DNA of 64,000 nt from Microthyrium microscopicum (Eukaryota). The translations under genes were made by a program, and so were the position numbers. The stretch lies in assembly GCA_010405405.1 (NCBI GenBank), contig MU004230.1, positions 1,708,627 through 1,772,626 of the forward strand, read 5' to 3'. The notes under the pieces were generated by a model. The model was not told the DNA's origin, did not search any database, and was given only the letters and a program-made list of their open reading frames with translations. Shown one piece after another: positions 15,758 to 54,488 of the stretch. How positions within the stretch are numbered: position 1 is the first letter of the stretch; each line of letters opens with the position of its first letter.

Positions 15758-16582
15758 ATGTGGACTACTACTCAAGTCCTCATAGCTTCCATCACCTTCA
15801 TTGGCCTCTCGGAACAACAAGGTCTACGACCACCGTGGGCTCAGTCACAAAAACCACCAGCTTGGGCTCAATCAAACGCACCGCCGGCCTGGGCTCAATC
15901 ACAAGCAAACCAACCACCATCTTGGGTATCAACACAAAGACCGCCCACATGGACGCAGACCCAAGCGCCAGCAGCCTGGCCAACCACGACACCACTCGCT
16001 GCAACATGGCAGCCGCGCACAACACCGGGCTTCGTATCAAGCTCATCTGCATGGCCACCGCGCTATCAATCCACTCAATCCGTCCTTCCGCCCCGCTCAA
16101 GTGCCCTCCCACCACCGCGACCTCTCGTTCCCAGCGCGCCGCGTCCAGCTTCAACATACTCACCCCGTCCAGCCGCTCCCGCTGCAACAGCAGCGCCTCG
16201 TCCAGCTGGTGAGACACCCGGCTGGGGAACGAACCTGCAAAACGGCCTCGGAAACCTGCTAGGAGCCCAAAGACCGCTCTCGATCCGCATGTGTCCCAAG
16301 GAAGTGCGCTGCACAGGCCTGTCGACGACTTGTGTGCCGCATCCATACCGAACTGATCGATTTATGTGCGTCAAGGTGGATGATGAGTGTGGAACGATTA
16401 TGAATCCGAAATGTCCAAGTGGGCAGACGTGTTTGGCGGATCCGAGAGATACTGATAGCTGGTAAGTTCATTTTCCACTCAAGTATTTAGGGCGATGCTA
16501 ATTGTTGTGCAGTAAGAATGGATGGTGTACTAGTTCGGCCGCGACTGGTGGTGGAATCTGCGTTACGCCGCCTAAGGATTGA
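15758..16582 (+). CDS. Secreted Pro/Trp-repeat protein with Cys-rich C-terminal domain; intron 16462-16512
   Basis: Hydrophobic N-terminus MWTTTQVLIASITFIGLS; PPxW repeats; spliced C-terminus CGTIMNPKCPSGQTCLADPRDTDSCKNGWC...GGGICV. Confidence 0.7.
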
Positions 16583-39569: not shown

Positions 39570-40396
39570 TGGCAGTTGATTGATCGGACGTCAGAAAGTA
39601 GCCGATAATTAGTATGATAGTTGGATTACAAGCAAAATTTTGTGAGCATGTGCATAAAAGCCATACCTTGGAGGTAACGACCAGATGCAGCCTGAATAAA
39701 GCATAGAAATAATTCTTTCATGAAAATGAAAAGTGAGACAAAGACAGAAGCTTTCTGATGTCCTATCATTGGGGATGTTCAGTATACCTACATAGTCGAG
39801 AAGACCATGGAACAAAGGGTATACGTGTTTATGATAGGTTCTGGCGTTCATTGTTCATGCTTCACACGAATCATCCCAAGTCTTGGGAGAGAGACAGACA
39901 TCGGACTAAGATCTAGTCCATAGATAACCCACGGTATAACGTTGTAGATGTGCATTTTCCGAACGAATCAAATATATCAATACTTTGACGAAGGAGTTAG
40001 CAACAAGGGACCAAGAACTCAAGGAGGGATGAAGTTGGACATAAGGCGCTAATAGCGGCATGGCCTTAGCGTGGTCTCAGCGTGGCTGGAGCTTGGCGCC
40101 AGAAAACGATCCAAGCGTCGTTGCATCCTCGTCGAGATCAACTTTCCTTGAGAGACGTCATGCTGCAGCCAACCTCCATCCATGTGAAATCGAGATTGTT
40201 TATTCTGCCTGCTCACCCTGTCTCAACCCCTCACAAGCATCATCTTTGCTCGCTGTCAGAAATAGCAGCATCTTGACCCTCCATATCAATTCGAGCCGTC
40301 GTTGAGTAGACCTCGGCTTCTGGCATTTGTTTACTTTGCTCTGGTGCAGCAAACAGTACCTCCATCGACCAGGCAGCCATCCTCGAATCTCTCAAA

Positions 40397-42285
40397 ATGG
40401 CTCTTATCCAAACGAGTTTGATATGGGTGACATACGCCGTAGCAATTGCTATTCTCCTAATAATTGCCACCACCTTCGTCTTCATCTACCAAGATCCCCG
40501 CGAACGAGCTGCCTCTGTAACAACTGTCTGTATATTCACAACGAGCGCCCTTCTAGCAACCGTGCTGTTGATGCCCGTTGATATCGCACTCGTATCAGCA
40601 ACAACTTCCTCAAGAGATGGTAGAAAGAAAGACTGGGCTACACCCGATGCCGTAGAAAGCATAAGGTATACCCTCGAAATCGTATACTACACTCTATACT
40701 CTCTGGACGCGGTGCTGTGCCTCCTTGTCATTCCCTTCACATACTTCTACTTCGAGGAAGGTGGTCCAGATAGCGATGAAGATTCGCCAAGCCTAGGTTC
40801 CAGACTCTGGGGTGCTTTCAAGTATACCATTGGGTTCATTCTATTCGTCGTCATCCTGTTCCTGGTTGGCTTTTTCGTACCAGCTGCCAAAGGAGCCAAG
40901 GATGGAAAGCATCTGGACTTGGACTACTTCAAAAATCTCCTATCAGAAAATCGTACGTTCAAGCTTATCCCTTGCATTGTCAAGACTAACGAATATTAGA
41001 TGGCGAACGCGCTCTCACTTTCGCTCTTGGCTTACTCATCACTCTTGGAACTTTGATATATGTCCTATACACCGCCGCTGGTCTAGCTCTTCTACCCGTT
41101 GCTATGATCAAATCTGCTCCTTCCATCTCAGCCCCATCTCTTGCAGAGAATACCGCTTCACAACTCGAACAAAACCGAGAGCGACAGCATCAACTCGAAT
41201 CAAGAAATGAAGGCCGCGAAGATGGATTGAACTCCAGAGATCAGCGAGAATTGGAGGCTCTCATTCGTGAAGAACGAACTCTTGTTCGACGAGAACGCCT
41301 TGCTGCAGAAGCAACAGGCGAAGGCCGCAGCTGGGTCGTCCGAACCTGGCACAAGGCTGAAGCCGTTTTCAGGCCTATCAAGCTTCTTGGAGGTTTACTC
41401 CTCATGGTCATTGCACTCTTGATCTGGACATCGATGCTCATTACTGGCATTGATAAGGCCAAGAACTCAGTCTGCAAAGCTGGCTGTGGCTATATCCTAG
41501 GACACATCAACATTTTTCAACCCGTCAACTGGATTTTCGTTGTTTCATCAAAGGTCTTCCCAATCGACTATATAGTCTTCCTCTTCCTTGTACTATTTCT
41601 CTTCGCGTCATCGGTTGTTGGCATCGGCGTCGTTGGCATCCGTTTCCTCTGGATCGTCATCTTCCGCATCCGCAAGGGCCATACAAGCCCACAGGCACTT
41701 CTCATGGCAACTGTGATGCTCACCTTGATCACACTGGCTATCAACTATTCTGTCGCCATGATGATCGCCCCTCAGTATGCCTCGTTCGGAACCCAAACCT
41801 ACTGTGATCTGCCAGCCCGCCATCCAGGCGAGCAACCTGATTGCTCTAACCACCGCAGCTCCATCAAAGCATGCACCGAGCTTGCAGACAACCCAGTCGC
41901 AGGCCTCGTCTGCACGCCAAGTGTTGTGTCTACCTTCATTAACCGAGCAATGCTCAACTTCTCGTTCTTCGGTGTCGTTGACTTTTGGGCTCAATTTGCG
42001 TTCCTTGGTATGTCTCCTTACTCTCTTGAACTCTTGACATTCTAACGAATCGCTTCAGGTGTCTACTTGATTGTCTTCTTGACGACTCTGTTCCGCACTC
42101 CAAAGCTAGATGTGGAAGGTCTGGATGCCGATCTCGAAGAAGAGGAAGAGGAAGGCTTGCTGAGCAGCACTGGTCGACGATTCAATGCCACATGGCAAGA
42201 CATTACCGGACGCTCGAAACAGCGCATGGCCCAGTATGGTGCCACTGATAGCCGAGAGCAGACTAATGGATCTGAGTCTCACTAA
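40397..42285 (+). CDS. LMBR1/LMBD1-like membrane protein (putative lysosomal cobalamin transporter family); introns 40953-40999, 42008-42058
   Basis: [41 protein letters not shown] motifs; multiple TM helices. Confidence 0.85.
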
Positions 42286-42566: not shown

Positions 42567-43449
42567 ATGCCAATTCCATTTGAAGATTTCACGGATCATA
42601 TTGACACCATTCGCCTGCCATTGCATTGGGATGGTTTTGCAGTAATCCATGAACCTATTGCAGCTCAACACAATCTGGTGTCATCTCTGCCAAATTCACA
42701 TGAGACTCGGGTGCCACACGATCCACTGACAGCTATTCTACCAATACCTAGGAATGACGAAGGTGAGTGACTCAAGCTAACAGGTAGCCGCGATCAGCAA
42801 TAAAGTTGATGTCATCCCTCCAGGTCGCCAGACACGCGTGTCAACTTCGAGTGCAGCAATCGAAATCGGCGAGGCCCAATATCATAACTTGGCTGAGCTA
42901 CTATATCACTCTCAAGAAGCAACAGCAAATTTTGAGATCCCATCAAGGCAGTCTTTGGCTCGTTATTTGACCGCCTATACCTTGGATTTCGATCCGCATT
43001 TACCATTCATTCATTTACAGGCCCACATTCGACATATCAAAATCTAGCTTAGAGCTTTTGCTGGCTATCGCATGTGCTGGAGCCCAGTATCGGTTCGAAC
43101 ACAAACAAGCCGTAAGCCTCTTTCTCGCGGCCAAAGCTTATTCTTTTCGAACGCATCAAAGAGCGCGAACGAAATGCGGATTTTGCTGATAAGTGCAAGC
43201 CCCACGAATTCCGGCTACCTGACCACTCCCTTGCGGGAGTCTATCAGCTCATCGATCAGAGTTCAGTCGCGAATGGAAACAGATATCGATTTGATGCAAG
43301 ATGCGCGCTGTTTAATGTGCCCGATTGTCTTCTATTCGAACCGGCAAGTATTTCGAGCCTCAGTGTCCATGCAAGCCATGTTAGTGCAATGCGTTCGCGA
43401 ATATACCCAACCATCACACTGCCAGGCATTACTCAAAGATATGAATTAG
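42567..43449 (+). pseudogene. Relic of a fungal-specific transcription factor (Fungal_trans-like domain)
   Basis: IPSRQSLARYLTAY..DFDPHLPFIHL and AIACAGAQYRFE segments broken by stops and frameshifts. Confidence 0.55.
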
Positions 43450-43893
43450 CTGCTCCCGGAAAGTATGATACAGTTTAAGTCGGCTTACAGCTTTGAGATT
43501 GTAGACTGGGAATTTTCGTAGTATCTTCCAGCTCTTTCTCAGGAGGCAAATTGTTCAGTTTTCAATATCGATAAGGCTGAGCTAGTCTCAAAATGAAAGA
43601 AATAGCAAGGATCATGGCATCTGTAGCCCCTGGAGACCAGTAGCTGTTGCGTCACTGCCATTTTTTGTCTTGTGGTCTCGGCGCTGGAGGGGTACTAACA
43701 TGGAAGGCACAAAGAAGGAAACAGCAAACAGCTATAGAAATCTAAACAGGAAGGTTTGATGGAAAGTATGATTTTGAGCCAATGAGATAATTGATATTTT
43801 AAAGGGCGATTTAATGCGCTTCAAGTCTTTGCTGTTTGCAAGGCAGCAATAGGTAGGCGCAGTGCAGTGGCAGGAAAATGGCGGGGCAACCAT

Positions 43894-43928
43894 AGAAGTT
43901 TTTGGAAAGAAATAGAATGTGGCAGAAG
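43894..43928 (+). promoter_or_regulatory. Step-type heat-shock element upstream of HSP70
   Basis: GAA at 43895, 43905, 43915 and 43925 (exact 10-bp phasing), about 220-250 bp upstream of the ATG. Confidence 0.65.
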
Positions 43929-44144
43929 GTTGGAGGCCCAACAAGAATCTACCAAAGCTTGAATCCAAACCACTACAAAATCCTCTGCTCGCTCAACTTC
44001 GCACACTTCTTTCTTCTTCATCTCAGAAACTCTTCATCCTTCTCCATCTACAAGACTACTTGCTCGGGTCACTCCTAATCCCTTGCTATACTAAAGCCCA
44101 ATACCCAATACCATCACATTCCACTTCCTACACATCCGCACATC

Positions 44145-46591
44145 ATGGCACCAGCTGTCGGTATCGATCTAGGTACCACGTACTCTTGCGTGGGTATCTT
44201 CCGCGATGATCGCATCGAAATCATTGCCAATGACCAAGGAAACCGAACAACACCTTCCTTCGTCGCTTTCACAGACACTGAGCGTCTCATTGGTGATGCC
44301 GCCAAAAATCAAGTCGCCATGAACCCTCACAACACAGTCTTCGACGCCAAGCGATTAATCGGTCGCAAGTTCGCCGATTCTGAAGTTCAGGCCGATATGA
44401 AGCATTTTCCCTTCAAGGTCATTGACCAAGCCGGAAAGCCAGCCGTCCAGGTTGACTTCAAGGGCGAACTCAAGACTTTCACACCAGAAGAGATCTCATC
44501 CATGATCTTGACCAAGATGCGGGAAACTGCTGAAGCATACCTCGGAGGCACTGTCAACAACGCCGTCGTCACCGTCCCAGCCTACTTCAACGACTCTCAA
44601 CGTCAGGCTACCAAGGATGCCGGTCTCATTGCTGGTCTCAACGTTCTCCGAATCATCAACGAGCCCACCGCTGCCGCCATTGCCTACGGTCTCGACAAGA
44701 AGGCCACTGGTGAGCGCAACGTGCTCATCTTCGATCTTGGTGGTGGAACCTTCGATGTCTCCCTCTTGACCATTGAGGAGGGTATTTTCGAAGTCAAGTC
44801 CACTGCTGGAGACACACATTTGGGTGGTGAGGACTTTGACAACCGTCTAGTCAACCACTTCGTCAACGAATTCAAGCGTAAGGTACGTTCAAATCCCCTC
44901 CAAGTTTTCCCTCAAGTTTTCCTTGCAAGTTTTTGGAACCAATAAGTGGCCTCCCATCGACTCCGCTGGGTACCATCGCCTTCTTTCACGAGAGGGTGGT
45001 TTCTTTCCCATCGTATTCGCGGAGAAATGACACTTGTTTTTCCAACCCAGTGGCTGGACGCGAGAAGTGGCATTCTTCCATCGACTCCGCTGGGCACCAT
45101 CGACTCCGCTGGGCCCCATCGCCTTTTTTCACGAGAAGGTGCTTTCGTTCCCATCGTAATCGAGGATAATTTTACTTGTTTTTTCCGCCCCAGTGGCTGG
45201 ACGCAACAAGTGACATATTCCCATCGACTTCGCTGGCTGCCATCGCCTCCTTTGCTGAGAAGGTGCTTTGGTTCCCATCGTAGTCGCTGGGAAAACGCCA
45301 CTTTTTTTGTCGATTGGTTTTTGCATTTTTTTCGCAATTTTTTTTGAAGAATATACACTAAATCTCTCTGAAGCATAAAAAAGACTTAACCAGCAACGCC
45401 CGCGCTCTTCGTCGTCTTCGAACCGCTTGCGAACGTGCCAAGCGCACCCTTTCCTCGTCCGCCCAAACCTCCATCGAGATCGATTCATTGTATGAGGGTA
45501 TTGACTTCTACACATCAATCACTCGTGCCCGCTTCGAGGAGCTCTGCCAGGATCTCTTCCGCTCTACCATGGAGCCAGTCGAGCGTGTTCTCCGTGACGC
45601 CAAGATCGACAAATCCTCTGTTCACGAAATCGTCCTTGTTGGTGGTTCCACCCGTATTCCCAAGATTCAGAAGCTAGTTAGCGACTTCTTCAACGGAAAA
45701 GAGCCCAACCGCTCAATCAACCCCGACGAGGCCGTTGCCTACGGTGCCGCCGTCCAGGCCGCCATTCTTTCTGGCGACACATCATCCAAGTCCACCAACG
45801 AGATCCTTCTTCTCGATGTCGCTCCTCTATCTCTCGGTATTGAGACCGCTGGTGGTGTCATGACTGCTCTCATCAAGCGTAACACCACTATCCCAACCAA
45901 GAAGTCCGAGACATTCTCGACCTTCTCCGATAACCAACCTGGTGTGCTTATCCAGGTCTACGAGGGAGAGCGTGCTCGCACCAAGGACAACAACCTTCTC
46001 GGAAAGTTCGAACTCACTGGTATTCCACCAGCTCCCCGTGGTGTTCCTCAAATTGAGGTCACCTTCGATCTTGATGCCAATGGTATCATGAACGTCTCTG
46101 CCGTTGAGAAGGGTACTGGAAAGTCCAACAAGATTGTCATCACCAACGATAAGGGCCGTCTGTCCAAGGAAGAGATTGAGCGCATGTTGTCAGAAGCCGA
46201 GAAGTACAAGGCTGAGGATGAAGCCGAAGCTTCCCGTATCGGTGCCAAGAACGCTCTCGAATCCTACGCTTACTCTCTCCGCAACACCATGAGCGATCCC
46301 AAGGTTGAGGAGAAGCTTGACGCTGGTGACAAGGAGAAGCTCAAGGCCGAGATCGACAAGACCGTGACCTGGCTCGACGACAGCCAACAGGCCACCAAGG
46401 AGGAGTATGAGAGCCAGCAAAAGGAGCTCGAGAGTGTCGCCAACCCCATCATGATGAAGTTCTATGGTGCTGGCGGCGAAGGAGGTATGCCCGGTGGCAT
46501 GCCAGGTGGTGGCTTCCCAGGCGGTGCTCCAGGTGGTGCTCCTCCTCATGCTGGTGGTGACGATGGTCCTACCGTCGAGGAGGTTGACTAA
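44145..46591 (+). CDS. hsp70: Cytosolic Hsp70 (SSA type); single intron 44883-45373
   Basis: [22 protein letters not shown]-terminal GPTVEEVD; splicing AAG|GT...AAG|CAT restores [29 protein letters not shown]. Confidence 0.98.
44944..45303 (+). repeat. Three tandem structured units (starts 44944, 45065, 45208) within the HSP70 intron
   Basis: Each unit reads AAGTG..CCATCGACTyCGCTGG..CCATCGCCT-hairpin-GGTG..TTCCCATCGTA.TCG..yACTT; units 1 and 2 are followed by CCCAGTGGCTGGACGC. Confidence 0.9.
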
Positions 46592-47469
46592 ATGCCTCGC
46601 TGCACTCTCGCTGGGTCGTCATGATACCACGAGTTCTTTCTTTTTGCTTTCTTGACTCCCCTGTTCTTCTTGGGTCTAGAAACTTTCCCACCGGTATGGC
46701 GTTCAGGCGCGTCATTTGAATTCTTAGATGAACCGAATAGGTTTACGGCCTTGCATGCATTATGATTTTCTTGTATGAAAACATGACCAAAAAACGGGTG
46801 ATGCGCAGTTGATAGATAGTCTGGTTTAGACCGGAATAATTAACTTTATGTTCAAAAAACTCATTGTGCCTTTCCATTCATCGTGACAATGTGCCTTGTG
46901 ACTTGCAATCTATGACATTGAAGACACATCTCTGCAATTGTCCTTTGATCAAATCCATTGGTGTAGATTCTCCCACCAGCATCCGTGCTGCTCGCCGCCG
47001 TCGCTGTTATCAGGCATTGGTCAATTTAGTTGCTCAATTGTTATGGACCTCAAAATTATGTTATGCGGAGGGCTGATATGGTGTTCAGATGAGCCAAGTT
47101 TATTAAAGACTTCATATTCTGCGGGACCTTGCTCAAGCCGCTCATCGGATGACCGCTCATAAATGAAATTAACAGCAAGTCAACCAGAGACAAATATCGC
47201 CTGGAATCTCCTCATCAGACTATTTTCTGCGATTTTACTCTACCACTGATGCTTTGTGTCTTTCTGTACTTCCTAAGTAATCTACCGCGGAAGGAGATTT
47301 GCCAATCCCGTCTTTTCGTTCCATATCTTTTACTCCAACATGAACTCCATATCAGTATCAAATCTCCAAAATCTACGGAAATCCCATTATGAACATTGAT
47401 GTTGTTGAGGATTGCAAATCCATCTTCATTATGATTGGTTGGAAGCTCTGGACCATCTGACCAATCAAT

Positions 47470-47488: not shown

Positions 47489-47784
47489 CAAGTCAAACTG
47501 TCAAGGATCAGGTGGCAGGTGCGCTCAAGCTGGATTGCTCTTGCCCATCGCTACCAAACTACCAGCAACTCTCCCACACCCAACATCTCTAACCTACAAC
47601 TCTCAATCCTTCAAATACAGAGTTCCCAGTCTTATCCACACCAAGCCAGATCTTCTGGTCCTGTGTGATCTGCTTATTCTTGACTCTTCTTATTCCAATT
47701 ACTATTCATGATTCTCCCACCTCCGTCGCGTCCCAACCAATCTCGAAATAACCACACCACCTAGCGCGCTGATCACCCTTCACC

Positions 47785-50418
47785 ATGTATCTCCCGCGCT
47801 CCCTAATATCGCACCTGTACAATGATCTCGTCCGGTCTCGTACATCTCTCTCGCCTTCGGTGCTGGTTCTCGTTTCACTCGAGCCTGACGCGTTATGTGC
47901 ATGCCGAATCCTCACGTCGCTTTTCAAGAATGACTATGTTCAACACAACATAAAACCTATTGCAGGTTATGCTGACCTCGCTCGGGTTGGGGAGGAGGTG
48001 ATCCGCCCAATGCGAACCACGGAAGGTGGCAGTGGTGGTGTTGTCGTCTGTCTCGGCGTGGGCGGTCTCGTAGATCTCGAGACTATCCTTGGCCTTGAAG
48101 TTGATGATGATGGCAATGGTGGTATGGGTGGTTTAGATGTCTGGGTGTTCGATGCACGACGTCCATGGAATTTAGCCAACGTGTTTGGCATGCAAAGTCG
48201 CGTCGAGCAGGTCAACGGCGAAGCAGTCTCGAGGATTGCAGGCGTAGAACACGGCAAGATTCTACAAACATTTAAACCTGGCGAAGGCGGCATTATAGTC
48301 TTTGACGATGGCGATATTGAGGAGGAGCTCAGAGCTGAAAAGGAAGCCTACTGTGCACTAGCTGAAATGCCAGATGTTGACGAAGAAGATGATGGAGACG
48401 ATTCAGACGACTCTGATGCAGGATCAGACCACGACGCAGACGACATGATACCTGAGTCAGGTCAGCCACAGATTGCGGATAGCGATGAAAGCGACAAGAG
48501 CTCGATAGGGGAGAAAAGAAAGCGAAGATCATCTCCCCAATTTAGTGACGACGACCACGAAGACAGTGATCCCGAAGAAGGAACGCCGAATAAAAGAAGA
48601 CGAAGCAACTCCTCATCACCGTTACCCTCATCTTCCCGACCGGCTGCCAGATCGCTAATGATACTATCCAAGCCAAATGACCAGCAAGTTGGTCAGCACG
48701 CCGAAGCATCAACGCATGGACAGCCTTCAGCCAAGAAATTGCGCAAACAGCTACTTAAGTTAAAGAGAAAACATGACTCTGTACTTCGAAAATACTACAA
48801 CCTAGGCGCTTCGTATTCAGAACCTATCTCATCACTCATGTGGAATCTAGCCTCTGAACTTGGTCGAGATAGCAATGACTTGCTATGGCTAGCCATTGTT
48901 GGGGTGAGCAGCGGGCAAATATCTGGCAGAACCGCCAGCGGCATTGGACTTTCACCAATTTCTACGTCTGGAACCTTATCGAGTTGGACCAAGGATCGTG
49001 GGGAGCGCATTCGCGCAATCTTTCGAGATGAAGTTCGTCGTCTCAACCCTACAGATCTTCGTGATCTAGCTCGCGAAGTAGGTGGTGATACTGGCATCAT
49101 ACCAACAAGAGCATACAGTCCCACCGATAATTCCATCAGATTGACACCCGAGCCCAGATTCCTTCTTGTCAGGCATTGGTCATTATATGACAGCATGCTC
49201 CACTCGCCATACCTTTCTGCCAAACTACACATCTGGAGTGACGCTGGCAAACGCAAAATGCACAAACTACTTGCAAAAATGGGGGTTAGCATTCAACAAA
49301 GTAAACAGAACTACCAACACATGGACATGGAAATTAAGCGGGGTCTTGGTGAGAAGCTTGTTCGATTCGCTCCTCAGTATGGCCTTGAAGGTCTCGTACC
49401 GCCTGAGACTCGGCTCAACAGCAAAGAAGGCTGGGGTTTCGTTCGATGTTGGGGCTGGAAAGCTTGCCTCAGCGCAATAGACTCTGGAATCATACTCGGA
49501 GCCATTCTCGAAGTTGGTGACATGGATGTTAAAACTGCAGCAGAGCAAGCTCGCAATGCTGCTCTACAATCTGCTGCTCACTCTGGCACCAGCACGCCTT
49601 CCAACAACCAAGATGCTCCTTTGCAAGGGGCCAAAGCTCCTACCCCTGCACAAGCACAGCTTTCTCGCGAAGAGTCTTTGCTCCGGCGCTTCTGGTCGGC
49701 CTACGATGCACTCGGGGACGTTATGCAGCTCACCTCAGCTATACCCACAGCACAACATTTGCATCGTGCTATCCTTCGGACCGGCACATCACTCATTGAG
49801 AAGCGACAAATTCGCCATCTTCGCGCTTTCCGCATGGCAGTCGTGAAGGAAGGACCAGATGTCGCATTGTTCACACATCCAGGTGCACTAGTCAAGTTGG
49901 CCTTATGGCTAGCCGAAGCAATCAGCGAAATGGACAGCCTCAAAGGCGCACGAACTGGCGAGCTCGTCATGGCCGGTCTCGACGAAGCGCGTGGCGTCTA
50001 TGTTGTCGTTGGTCTCGGCGGTGGCAGCGCAGTAGCCAAAATGAAGGAGCGCGAAGCTAGAGTCGCCGAGCGTAAGAAAGAACGGGAGCGGACAAAGGCA
50101 GAGCGCAAGGCCGCCAAGGACAAGAAGCGTCAACAGCGTAAAGATCGGCTGGCGGCATTGGGCGAGAGCGATGCTGAGGACGAAGAAGATGACGAGACGG
50201 AAAGCGAAGCGAGTGAGAGCGAGGAGGAGAGTGAAGATGAAGAGGAAGCTCCTCGAGGCAAGGGTCTCAATCGATTTGGAAATGCGTTCCAGGAGGTTAT
50301 TGAGGAGACTGGCGTGCGTGTCAAGGTAGATAGCTTTGAGCACTGTGTGGTGGAGATTCGCAAGGAGGATCTTTCTGGGTTTTTAGAAAGTCTGTGCATG
50401 AAGGCGGTTGTGGGATAG
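47785..50418 (+). CDS. CDC45: DNA replication initiation factor Cdc45
   Basis: EPDALCACRIL, DARRPWNLANVF, FLLVRHWSLYDSM, LLAKMGVS, NRFGNAF motifs; single exon. Confidence 0.95.
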   Translation: MYLPRSLISHLYNDLVRSRTSLSPSVLVLVSLEPDALCACRILTSLFKNDYVQHNIKPIAGYADLARVGEEVIRPMRTTEGGSGGVVVCLGVGGLVDLETILGLEVDDDGNGGMGGLDVWVFDARRPWNLANVFGMQSRVEQVNGEAVSRIAGVEHGKILQTFKPGEGGIIVFDDGDIEEELRAEKEAYCALAEMPDVDEEDDGDDSDDSDAGSDHDADDMIPESGQPQIADSDESDKSSIGEKRKRRSSPQFSDDDHEDSDPEEGTPNKRRRSNSSSPLPSSSRPAARSLMILSKPNDQQVGQHAEASTHGQPSAKKLRKQLLKLKRKHDSVLRKYYNLGASYSEPISSLMWNLASELGRDSNDLLWLAIVGVSSGQISGRTASGIGLSPISTSGTLSSWTKDRGERIRAIFRDEVRRLNPTDLRDLAREVGGDTGIIPTRAYSPTDNSIRLTPEPRFLLVRHWSLYDSMLHSPYLSAKLHIWSDAGKRKMHKLLAKMGVSIQQSKQNYQHMDMEIKRGLGEKLVRFAPQYGLEGLVPPETRLNSKEGWGFVRCWGWKACLSAIDSGIILGAILEVGDMDVKTAAEQARNAALQSAAHSGTSTPSNNQDAPLQGAKAPTPAQAQLSREESLLRRFWSAYDALGDVMQLTSAIPTAQHLHRAILRTGTSLIEKRQIRHLRAFRMAVVKEGPDVALFTHPGALVKLALWLAEAISEMDSLKGARTGELVMAGLDEARGVYVVVGLGGGSAVAKMKEREARVAERKKERERTKAERKAAKDKKRQQRKDRLAALGESDAEDEEDDETESEASESEEESEDEEEAPRGKGLNRFGNAFQEVIEETGVRVKVDSFEHCVVEIRKEDLSGFLESLCMKAVVG

Positions 50419-50977: not shown

Positions 50978-53900
50978 ATGTACGGGCCAACTCGCAATGT
51001 CGATATGACAAAGTATGTCAACCTATCGCTTCGAGCGCCGGCTTGTGTGTATTGTACAATGCTAATGAATAGCTAGACAAGAAGGCGAATTGGCCATCAA
51101 CATCAAGAAGGCGACCAATACAGGTTTGTGCCTTCAGCCTAGTAAACTTTCTATCAAGCTAACTCGAGAATCACAGATGAGACAGCGCCAAAACGTATAT
51201 CCTATCACTCTTCCATTATAATCATCAAGCTCACCTGAAGCTAGGCAAGCATGTACGAGCTTGTATCGTCTATACTTGGGATCACAAATCCTCGCTGTCT
51301 TTCTGGGCAGGAATGAAAGTGTACGCTCAACATCACAACTCTTATTGTGAAACACATGCTAAGACATCCCCAATAGACAGCCAATCCTCGCCGACGAAGT
51401 CCAAACCTTTAAAGCCCTCATTACCGTACACAAAGTCCTACAAGAAGGTCACCCAGTGGCCTTGAAAGAAGCCCAAGCCAATGTTGGATGGCTTGAAAGC
51501 TTGCGACGAGGAGCTGGACACGGCGAAGGTGTGCGCGGATATGGAAAGCTTATTGAAGAATACGTTTTCTTCTTGCGCGCAAAGCTAGCATTTCATCGAC
51601 AGCATCAAGAGTTCAATGGTACAACTCTTCGAACCACTCTCACAATTACAGCTAACTCCTTCTAGGAACGTTTGAATACGAAGAGTATATCAGCTTGAAG
51701 AGCATCAATGACCCAAATGAGGGGTATGTAAATTCCTAGTCTTCTGGATTGATTAGCTGACCAATGATAGATATGAAACTATTACCGACCTCATGACCCT
51801 TCAAGATCAAATCGACAATTTCCAGAAGCTTATCTTCGCGCACATTCCTCATACTGCTCACAGTGAATGCCGTATATCGGCGTTGGTTCCATTGGTCCAG
51901 GAAAGCTATGGAATCTACAAATTCATTACCAGCATGCTACGAGCTATGCACACAACTCTAGGTGACGATGATGCATTGGCACCACTTCGGGAACGATATA
52001 ACATGCAACATTACCGATTGGTCAAATTTTACTACGAGTGTGGTCAGTTGCGATATCTCACTAGTTTAATCACGGTTCCAAGGCTGCCGCAGGATCCTCC
52101 AGGTCTGCTAGCTGAGGATGACGAGAGACCCGGTCTGCCCAATCGGCCTGCCAAAGAAATTGAAAAGCCACCAACTCCCGACAAGGTCATAGACCGCGCA
52201 CCACCGATTGATCCAGAACCAATAAACGAGTTCTGGAAGAACCAAGATGCATTTGCAGATGAGCAGCGAAGACTTCAAGAACAGTTCGAAGCTGAGCGTC
52301 GAGCTCAAGAAGAACGTGAGAGACAAGCGCAATTGGACTTTGAGAATCAACAACGAGCTCAAGCAGAACAACAGAGGCTTGAGCAAGAACGTCTTCAGCA
52401 ACAGCTTCAGAATCAACAAACGTACGGTCGCATGGCAGATCTGGAGCGCGAGAATCTTGCCGCCAGAGCCCGGTATGAGCAAGATCAATTGATGCTTCAA
52501 CAGTATGACCGAAAACTCCAAGCTCTAGAAGCAGAGCTCGCCCAATTGCAAGCGAATTATCAACAGCAGAACAATTCCAAGGATGAGCAGATTCGAGCCC
52601 TTCAAGAATCGGTCAACACATGGCGCAACAAGTATGAATCTTTGGCAAAATTATATTCTCAACTACGGACTGAGCATCTCGAACTGCTTCAAAAGTTCAA
52701 GGGTGTTCAAGCCAAGGCTGCTTCGGCCCAGGAAGCGATTGACCAACGCGAGAAATTGCAGCGCGAGCTGAAGCAAAAGAATTTGGATCTTGCTAACATG
52801 CTCCGAGAACGCGATCGTGCAATGCTGGACAAGGACCGAGTAACTGGCGGTCACAAGGACGAGCTCGACAAACTCAACCGAGAACTTAGATTCGCTAGAG
52901 ACAAGGCCGAGGATGCCGAGCGTGCGAAAGGAGCTGAATTGGGAGTCGTCATCAACAGATACCAGAGAGAGATCTCAGATCTTGAGGAGCTTCTTCGTCA
53001 ACGCGAAAAGGCGCTGGACGGTATGCGCGATAGCGGTGAGCTTGATGAGCTTCGCCGTCAATTGCGCGAGAAGGATGATCAAATTGAGATCGTCCAAGCT
53101 GGCATGGATCAAACCATTCTCGAGCTTAATGCGCTTCGACAACTTCACGAGGCCAACGATCAAGTCATCGATGGCCAGCTCGACTCTGTTGTCTTGGACA
53201 GCATTCGCAAGATCAACGATATCATTGATTCAGTCCTTCAAAGCGGTGTTCAACGAGTGGACGACTCCATTTACGAGCTTGATTCTTCAATGCAGGCTGG
53301 TAACCAGAATGCTTCTGGTGCCTATGTTCTCTCTCAGATCGAGAAGGCAGCACAAAATGCCATGGAGTTCTCTACTGCATTCCGGGAGTTCATCGCGGAT
53401 GGACATAATCACAATCACGCCGAAATCATTCGTACAGTCAACCTATTTTCTGGCTCCATCTCTGACGTCTTGAGCAACACCAAGGGATTGCAGCGCTTTG
53501 CTTCTGATGACCGAAAGGGTGATCAGCTTATCAACGCCGCACGAAAGTCTGCTCAATCAACTATCAAGTTCTTCCGTGACTTGCAATCTTTCCGTCTAAC
53601 AGGCCTCGACGACCATCAAAAGCAAGATGTTATCATTCATAATAATGGGGACGTCCAATTAAACCTCCAGAACCTCTCAAAGCTGGCGGACGCTTTCGCT
53701 CCAAAGAGCAAGATTACTAACCAATCTGGTGACCTTGGAGACTTGGTTGATCAGGAAATGACCAATGCCGCGAAGGCTATCGACGCGGCTGCTGCTCGCC
53801 TCCAAGCTCTCATGAACAAGCCAAGAGACGCATATTCCACCTATGAGCTCAAGATTCACGAGTAAGTACTTTTTGATCATACCTCTGTAGCCTGACTAAC

Positions 53901-54488
53901 AATGACAGCTCCATCATCAACGCAGCAATTGCCATTACCAACGCCATTGCTCAACTCATCAAGGCGGCCACCGACTCCCAGCAAGAAATCGTTCGCGAAG
54001 GCAAAGGTTCTTCCAGCCGTGCTGCCTTCTACAAGAAACACAACCGCTGGACCGAGGGTCTCATCAGTGCCGCCAAAGCTGTCGCTAATTCGACTAACTT
54101 ACTCATCGAGACAGCTGACGGTGTCATCTCCGGCCACAAGACACCCGAGCAACTTATTGTCGCCTCTAACGATGTTGCCGCATCCACTGCTCAACTGGTC
54201 GCTGCCAGTCGTGTCAAGGCTAGCTTGATGAGCAAGACTCAAGAACGTCTTGAGACTGCGAGCCGTGCTGTCACACAAGCTTGCCGCAGCTTGGTTCGCC
54301 AAGTGCAAGACATTATTGCTCAGCGCGATCAAGATGCGGATAATGTGGATTATAGCAAGCTCAGTCGACATGAGTTGACGACAACGGAAATGGAGCAGCA
54401 GGTGGAGATTTTGACGCTGGAGAATAAGTTGGGCCAGGCCCGGACACGGTTGGGTGAGATGCGTAAGCTGGCGTACCAGGATGAGTGA
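50978..54488 (+). CDS. SLA2: Endocytic adaptor Sla2/End4 (ANTH, coiled-coil, THATCH), multi-exon including an 18-nt micro-exon ~51177-51194
   Basis: ETAPKRKHVRACIVYTWDH, FKALITVHKVLQEGHP, RWTEGLISAAKAVA, VAASTAQLVAASRVKA, EMEQQVEILTLE. Confidence 0.95.

Follow-up and report, generated by a model that had tools for sequence, protein, structure and literature searches.

A self-folding tandem array in the intron of a fungal HSP70 gene, with an outer clamp and alternative pairing registers, probably a tolerated minisatellite expansion

The window analysed here, that is, the whole stretch of 64,000 nucleotides (64 kb), carries on its plus strand the gene of a cytosolic HSP70, a very highly expressed chaperone gene, divided into two exons by a single long intron (Table 1). 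The initial annotation had assigned the region to an HSP70 intron, and contigs from public runs bear this out, since they join position 44879 to 45371 (equivalent to a joint between 44882 and 45374) and leave out 491 nt whose ends are GT..AG. This intron-skipping joint was found in one contig of run X6, which presented no differences from the locus, in two contigs of X7 and in one of X8; the X8 contig differs at about 60 positions and is therefore mRNA of another organism. All X6-X8 contigs across the junction were spliced, none from these runs lay on the intron, and a single splice junction was observed among the near-identical contigs. In run X5, contig ends at 44882 continue directly with the beginning of exon 2 (CATAAAAAA). 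The sole intron-spanning contig of that run (44853-45393, 0 differences) reached a depth of 356, and the flanking exon contigs reached 18,510 and 23,793. If X5 is RNA, a guess that the 50-fold depth step fits, the unspliced signal would be roughly 1.5-2%, contig depths being a crude measure.

The HSP70 intron is about ten times as long as the two introns predicted in neighbouring genes (40953-40999 and 53862-53908), which measure 47 nt each, are frame-consistent and present canonical signals. In Fusarium core genes, introns have a median length of 57 nt and range from 42 to 529 nt, according to the available text of PMC5677156. The 5′ splice site of the HSP70 intron reads GTACGT (44883-88) and the 3′ splice site AAG (45371-73). 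A motif scan found neither CTRAY nor TTRAY anywhere in the intron, and the only plausible branch motif is CTAAA, whose location agrees with the branch point of about 45356 given in the initial annotation. This motif is among the CTHAH motifs, used by 4-5% of Fusarium introns in the same available text (PMC5677156). Heat-shock elements, sought at up to one mismatch, were absent from the intron.

Table 1. Positions of the features of the HSP70 gene and of its intronic array, numbered from the first letter of the window
Feature	Position	Strand	Description and basis
HSP70 exon 1	44145..44882	+	ATG at 44145, 246 codons, C-terminal ...NEFKRK; ORF table; end verified by spliced contigs and by loose ends at 44882
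HSP70 intron, phase 0, spliceosomal	44883..45373	+	491 nt, GTACGT...AAG; joints in X6-X8 contigs, spliced loose ends in X5
13-nt tandem repeat CCCTCCAAGTTTT, 3 copies	44896..44933	+	Intron 5′ flank; TRF and repeat search
Self-complementary tandem array	44937..45319	+	383 nt, three hairpin-like units; TRF score 403, unit alignment, motif count
L1, left arm of unit 1	44937..44990	+	Outer-clamp 5′ strand; RNAduplex L1xR3 -55.0 kcal/mol, z -8.2; MFE
R1, right arm of unit 1	44991..45042	+	Degenerate partner; duplexes of -30.4 to -33.5 kcal/mol with any left arm
L2, left arm of unit 2	45058..45133	+	Extra 19-nt duplication at 45078-45121; TRF 19-nt period, 2.3 copies, 96% matches; alignment
R2, right arm of unit 2	45134..45185	+	Degenerate partner; duplexes of -26.7 to -29.4 kcal/mol
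L3, left arm of unit 3	45201..45257	+	Start makes local R2-L3 hairpin 45173-80/45205-12
R3, right arm of unit 3	45258..45319	+	Outer-clamp 3′ strand; best partner of L1, L2 and L3 (-55.0, -48.8, -42.2 kcal/mol); inverted repeats
T-rich 11-nt tandem repeat	45318..45343	+	Intron 3′ flank; TRF
Probable branch motif CTAAA	45358..45362	+	Probable branch A 45361, 12 nt from 3′ end; motif scan
HSP70 exon 2	45374..46591	+	HKKDLTSN... to ...TVEEVD and stop; ORF table, spliced contigs

Most of the intron is occupied by a hierarchical tandem array with a 143-nt unit, present in 2.1 (TRF) to about 2.7 copies with 82% matches. With its TRF score of 403 it is by far the strongest tandem repeat of the 64 kb, the next independent one scoring 82. 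The three units (44937-45042, 45058-45185 and 45201-45319; 106, 128 and 119 nt) align well, and three 76-nt copies show identities of 100, 84 and 82%. All ten CCATCG motifs of the intron are on the plus strand, with none on the minus strand, a density of 20.4 per kb as against 0.27 per kb over the remainder of the window. Every unit is an imperfect hairpin whose left arm has the form AAGTGGC…CCATCGACTCCGCTGGG… and whose right arm has the form …CCCATCGTAGTCGCTGGGAAAACGCCACTT, and the arm motifs are alike both directly and as reverse complements. The unit itself being an imperfect hairpin, pairing is possible for every combination of a left with a right arm. Removal of the array (44937-45319) would leave 54 nt before it and 54 nt after it, an intron of 108 nt in all.

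Intronic minisatellites are tandem repeats, tens to hundreds of bases in size, that lie within introns. The HSP70 array has the properties of such a repeat, with head-to-tail copies of about 80% identity, a 143-nt period, a nested 19-nt period, a non-coding intron site and no known RNA family; the Rfam 15 search of 43500-47000 on both strands returned no match at E<=1. It differs from the usual intronic minisatellite in that its unit is an imperfect palindrome, its transcript is unusually self-complementary and its host is a very highly expressed chaperone gene. The array is low in A (18.3%), which accounts for the open reading frames that cross it (0-4 stops per frame of 127 codons). Neither of its two ORFs had a Pfam match. 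For the minus-strand ORF (44915-45376, 154 aa), the protein collections gave four candidates, none at E<=0.001. The plus-strand ORF (44946-45344, 133 aa) had one match among 1.84 billion representatives, at E 4.8e-4 and 29% identity over 55 residues of a 2112-aa protein, which was treated as spurious.

As to relatives, no second copy of the array was found in the 64-kb window, and none among 120 metagenome loci having the 16-mer CCATCGACTYCGCTGG, with one match per locus. A blastn comparison of the whole gene (44145-46591) with these 120 loci (351,414 nt) gave two 20-nt matches only, at E 0.005, attributable to chance. The array may be conserved in close relatives, these searches being blind to most fungal genomes.

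In the context of pairing, all of the helices listed in the initial annotation were recovered where it had placed them. The outer clamp that encloses the whole array consists of helix A (AACCAAT 44937-43 with ATTGGTT 45313-19; 7 of 7 pairs), helix B (AAGTGGC 44944-50 with GCCACTT 45297-303; 7 of 7) and helix C (TCCCATCGACT from 44952 with AGTCGCTGGGA from 45282; 10 of 11), with a bulge of 9 nt between A and B. The two helices given as examples of alternative registers join R1 to L2 (45021-35 with 45065-79; 13 of 15 pairs, including one GU) and R2 to L3 (8 of 8 pairs, including one GU). The clamp was predicted to form, its three helices being present when the 491-nt intron is folded to its MFE (-151.1 kcal/mol) and likewise in the centroid fold. 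Compared with 100 dinucleotide shuffles of the intron (mean -127.05, sd 6.24), the MFE had a z of -3.85, and one shuffle folded at least as well. The predicted clamp is also context-sensitive, since at 25 C exon flanks of 100 or 200 nt at both ends lowered the probabilities of its helices to 0.07, 0.40 and 0.36.

The nine left-by-right arm duplexes ranged from -26.7 to -55.0 kcal/mol, and seven of the nine combinations were equalled or bettered by at most one of 200 shuffles. The outermost pair, L1xR3, was the strongest, with -55.0 kcal/mol versus -24.3 +/- 3.7 for 200 right-arm shuffles (z -8.2; 0 of 200 as good), compared with z values of -1.3 to -4.5 for the remaining pairs. This prominence of L1xR3 is not trivial, yet it is also a 1-in-9 outcome by position alone. 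The inner right arms discriminate little between their partners, as R1 gave -33.5 with L1 and -30.7 with L2, and R2 gave -26.7 with L2 and -27.6 with L3. Among the three paralogous units, none of the 27 predicted pairs presented a compensatory double change. The pairing of the intron thus exceeds chance for random sequence, but it is no greater than its repeat architecture would predict; the outer clamp and the alternative registers exist because the tandem array is built of a palindromic unit.

The behaviour of the registers with temperature was followed in the intron alone at eight temperatures between 10 and 60 C, by partition functions and by 500 Boltzmann samples per temperature. Across this range, the predicted probabilities were 0.39-0.65 for clamp helix A, 0.64-0.86 for helix B and 0.55-0.81 for helix C. 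The L1-R3 pairing was present in 68-91% of the samples and the competing L2-R3 pairing in 8-32%. The claim that the array can adopt mutually exclusive registers therefore stands insofar as these coexist in the predicted ensemble; of the two examples put forward for it, the R2-L3 helix was probable (0.99 falling to 0.54) but the R1-L2 helix was not (0.01-0.18). On thermodynamic prediction only, neither a melting transition nor a register flip of the clamp appeared between 10 and 60 C, and the ensemble is predicted to be a mixture of mutually exclusive registers without transition. The switch-like, thermal reading of the initial annotation consequently finds no support in these folds.

The intron's 5′ splice site, its branch motif and its 3′ splice site each lie at least 38 nt outside the array, and therefore no register hides or exposes a splice signal and the registers should be functionally near-equivalent. 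The array could also act on splicing by shortening the intron, as had been suggested for the clamp. [quoted passage not shown] However, in 40 controls with intact flanks and a dinucleotide-shuffled array, the median of medians was 31 steps (range 19-51). Shuffled arrays being as short, the shortening itself is upheld by prediction but is generic and not specific to the clamp. The unconstrained distance was 11 in real and shuffled introns alike, a value without information, since it stems from a weak helix between the 5′ splice site itself and the stretch immediately preceding the branch motif. The ends of long RNAs lie close in predicted folds as a general principle, and the generic shortening fits this principle.

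Taken as a whole, the most likely reading, to which a probability of about 0.68 was assigned, is that of a tolerated, self-folding minisatellite expansion in an ordinary HSP70 intron. Within an intron that is ordinary in other respects and measured about 108 nt, in a fungus resembling filamentous ascomycetes, a central minisatellite would have grown from a quasi-palindromic building block of about 19 nt (CCATCG...CGCTGGG), and in the pre-mRNA the resulting array would most likely fold on itself and loop out. We infer that this expansion is tolerated and essentially neutral rather than a selected device. Several observations count against this reading. L1xR3 stands far above the other arm pairs, as selection for the outermost pairing would yield; the intron has about ten times the length of its neighbours and carries the strongest repeat of the window; and an intron without CTRAY and with an AAG 3′ site is of the weak type in which a yeast zipper stem is needed, as in the available account of RPL7B (PMC12311795).

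The best-placed alternative is that the L1-R3 clamp is a selected splicing enhancer, equivalent to the zipper stems of Saccharomyces, which would loop out 383 nt at any temperature and without any switch, and would thereby allow efficient splicing of an intron that is oversized ten-fold, has a nonconsensus branch motif and ends in an AAG 3′ site. Zipper stems are known from the long S. cerevisiae introns of RPS17B, RPL7A and RPL7B (PMC2536676, PMC12350175, PMC12311795), and the HSP70 clamp resembles them in its way of working (PMC2536676, PMC12350175). In RPL7B, according to the available text, a weak branch sequence makes the zipper stem necessary, and the stem is regulated by a structure that excludes it (PMC12311795); in the HSP70 intron, the AAG 3′ site and a branch motif off the consensus recall that case and favour a selected clamp, as do its presence in the MFE and centroid folds, the energy of L1xR3 at the top of the nine arm pairs and the low unspliced signal suggested by the X5 contig depths.

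The rules published for S. cerevisiae zipper stems, as far as given in the available part of PMC12350175, comprise minimum linkers of 10 nt and 20 nt with a total of 42-85 nt, a helix confidence of at least 70% in DMS-guided modelling in vivo, and at most 5 bulged nt. In the HSP70 intron the helices are complete or nearly so in both predicted folds, and the linkers, 54 nt on the 5′ side (44883-44936) and 41 nt on the 3′ side (45320-45360, given the probable branch point), exceed the minima. The total linker from intron base 1 to the branch A, however, is 95 nt versus a maximum of 85 nt (PMC12350175), which is borderline, and becomes 84 nt if the count leaves out the GUACGU hexamer as well as the five bases that precede CTAAA. 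The predicted 9-nt bulge between helices A and B compares with at most 5 bulged nt in the published rule (PMC12350175), and the in silico probabilities of 0.39-0.86 for the intron alone, or 0.07-0.40 with exon flanks, compare with at least 70% in vivo for the yeast stems.

Moreover, unlike in the yeast zipper stems, the strands of the HSP70 stem are the terminal arms of a tandem repeat, and the host is a fungus of the short-intron filamentous type instead of a budding yeast; within the literature compared here, in its available parts, zipper stems have been shown only in Saccharomycotina. Together with shuffled arrays that cut the structural distance equally, the loss of helix probability upon addition of exon sequence and the lack of compensatory changes among the units, these differences make selection of the clamp unlikely, if still the alternative most worth considering.

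A related proposal is that the terminal arms of the expansion would have been co-opted as an enhancer of the zipper-stem type, with which the fungus would splice the oversized intron in spite of its weak branch and 3′ signals, while the degenerate inner arms would compete and so tune the clamp-closed fraction, and with it the HSP70 output, co-transcriptionally, for example through elongation rate or through helicase or chaperone availability under stress. It is a speculative and rather improbable proposal.

In terms of origin, it was also considered that the array derives from a foldback or MITE-like transposable element that was inserted in the intron and then partly duplicated, the clamp representing its terminal inverted repeats. 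The ends resemble such repeats (AAGTGGC...GCCACTT, extended by AACCAAT...ATTGGTT), the unit is a long imperfect hairpin, and excision of 44937-45319 would restore an intron of normal size. On the other hand, no direct repeat that could represent a target-site duplication was found at either candidate array boundary, the window holds no second copy, nothing related appeared among the metagenome loci sharing the 16-mer, and the array is flanked by short tandem repeats, which points to local slippage or duplication. An insertion of this kind is accordingly held to be highly doubtful.

The proposal that register competition forms a conformational or thermal switch altering HSP70 splicing with temperature draws on the near-equal energies of the registers of R1 and R2, on the mixed ensemble, on the heat-shock host gene and on the existence of intronic RNA thermosensors such as APE2, but it is very improbable, given folds that neither melt nor flip from 10 to 60 C, an array devoid of splice signals whose registers are near-equivalent in function, a unimodal and temperature-independent structural distance, and one splice junction only among near-identical contigs. 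In the APE2 intron of S. cerevisiae (Meyer et al. 2011, per the available text of PMC11585973), a stem-loop keeps an alternative 3′ splice site covered and comes apart upon heat shock. The HSP70 intron is alike in that an intronic structure of a fungal pre-mRNA is invoked together with heat, but its structure holds no splice signal and no melting is predicted for it up to 60 C. Similarly, Trichophyton rubrum (PMC6830096) and Blastocladiella emersonii (PMC2773782) harbour HSP70-family genes that contain introns and have been examined for splicing under stress, which makes them comparable with the HSP70 intron; the available parts of these reports give retention levels and describe no repeat arrays or long-range stems, the term "secondary structure" having 0 occurrences in that of PMC6830096.

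With the tolerated minisatellite expansion as the preferred reading, the main value of this locus as the evidence stands is one of caution. Tandem arrays of a palindromic unit always offer an outer clamp and alternative registers, and predicted folding brings together the ends of any 400-nt insert, so that neither clamp and registers nor close ends alone signal a riboswitch-like device. If the clamp were functional, the zipper-stem concept would extend to short-intron filamentous fungi, and the self-complementarity of a repeat would be seen to make an intronic expansion harmless or useful in a gene that has to be spliced under stress. Co-option of the terminal arms of the array, if true, would give the first account of a zipper stem beyond the budding yeasts and an instance of a minisatellite that has become a splicing device.

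No CTRAY or TTRAY branch motif was found anywhere in the HSP70 intron (44883-45373), and the sole branch candidate near its 3′ end was CTAAA (45358-62), placed 12 nt from a 3′ splice site that is itself non-YAG (AAG). Despite the missing motifs and the AAG end, spliced contigs demonstrated that this intron is removed. Among the neighboring genes, those coding for the LMBR1-like and the ANTH + I/LWEQ proteins presented candidate introns of 47 nt (40953-40999 and 53862-53908, respectively), both carrying GTACGT or GTAAGT together with a CTRAY motif and YAG. The public sequencing runs X7 and X8 yielded contigs of other organisms that were unbroken over the identical HSP70 exon-exon joint (44879/45371), with up to ~60 differences over 329 nt; since such contigs could be either spliced or intronless, they are uninformative on the presence of an intron at this joint in those organisms.

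Features in and around the HSP70 gene
Feature	Coordinates	Strand	Remarks
LMBR1-like membrane protein	40310-42045		split ORFs; Pfam
Heat-shock-element-like triplet GTTCGCGAATATACC	43393-43407		1 mismatch; upstream of HSP70 ATG (44145)
Heat-shock-element-like triplet AGAAGTTTTTGGAAA	43894-43908		1 mismatch; upstream of HSP70 ATG (44145)
13-nt tandem repeat, unit CAAGTTTTCC	44896-44933		3 copies; intron flank outside main array
Open frame, 157 aa	44912-45385	-	through repeat array
Open frame, 133 aa	44946-45347	+	through repeat array
11-nt tandem repeat	45318-45343		2.4 copies; intron flank outside main array
CDC45	47773-50418		one 881-aa ORF; Pfam
ANTH + I/LWEQ protein, Sla2/End4-like	51757-54488		Pfam

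The heat-shock-element-like pair upstream of HSP70 is weak evidence, since 15 triplets of this kind occur in the whole 64 kb. The two open frames crossing the self-complementary repeat array of the intron on opposite strands presented no Pfam matches and no convincing homologues were found for either; the low A content of the array (18.3%) explains them, as stop codons are consequently scarce in either orientation.

The sole further tandem repeat in the window with a TRF score of at least 80 was a 27-nt repeat at 15829-15904 (2.8 copies, 75% matches, score 82). Within the intron, shorter tandem repeats flank the main array on both sides, and the 13-nt flank unit CAAGTTTTCC is similar to the junction sequence CTTGTTTTTCC found after each right arm. 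The flank repeats and this likeness suggest that the main array was formerly longer or grew via local slippage.
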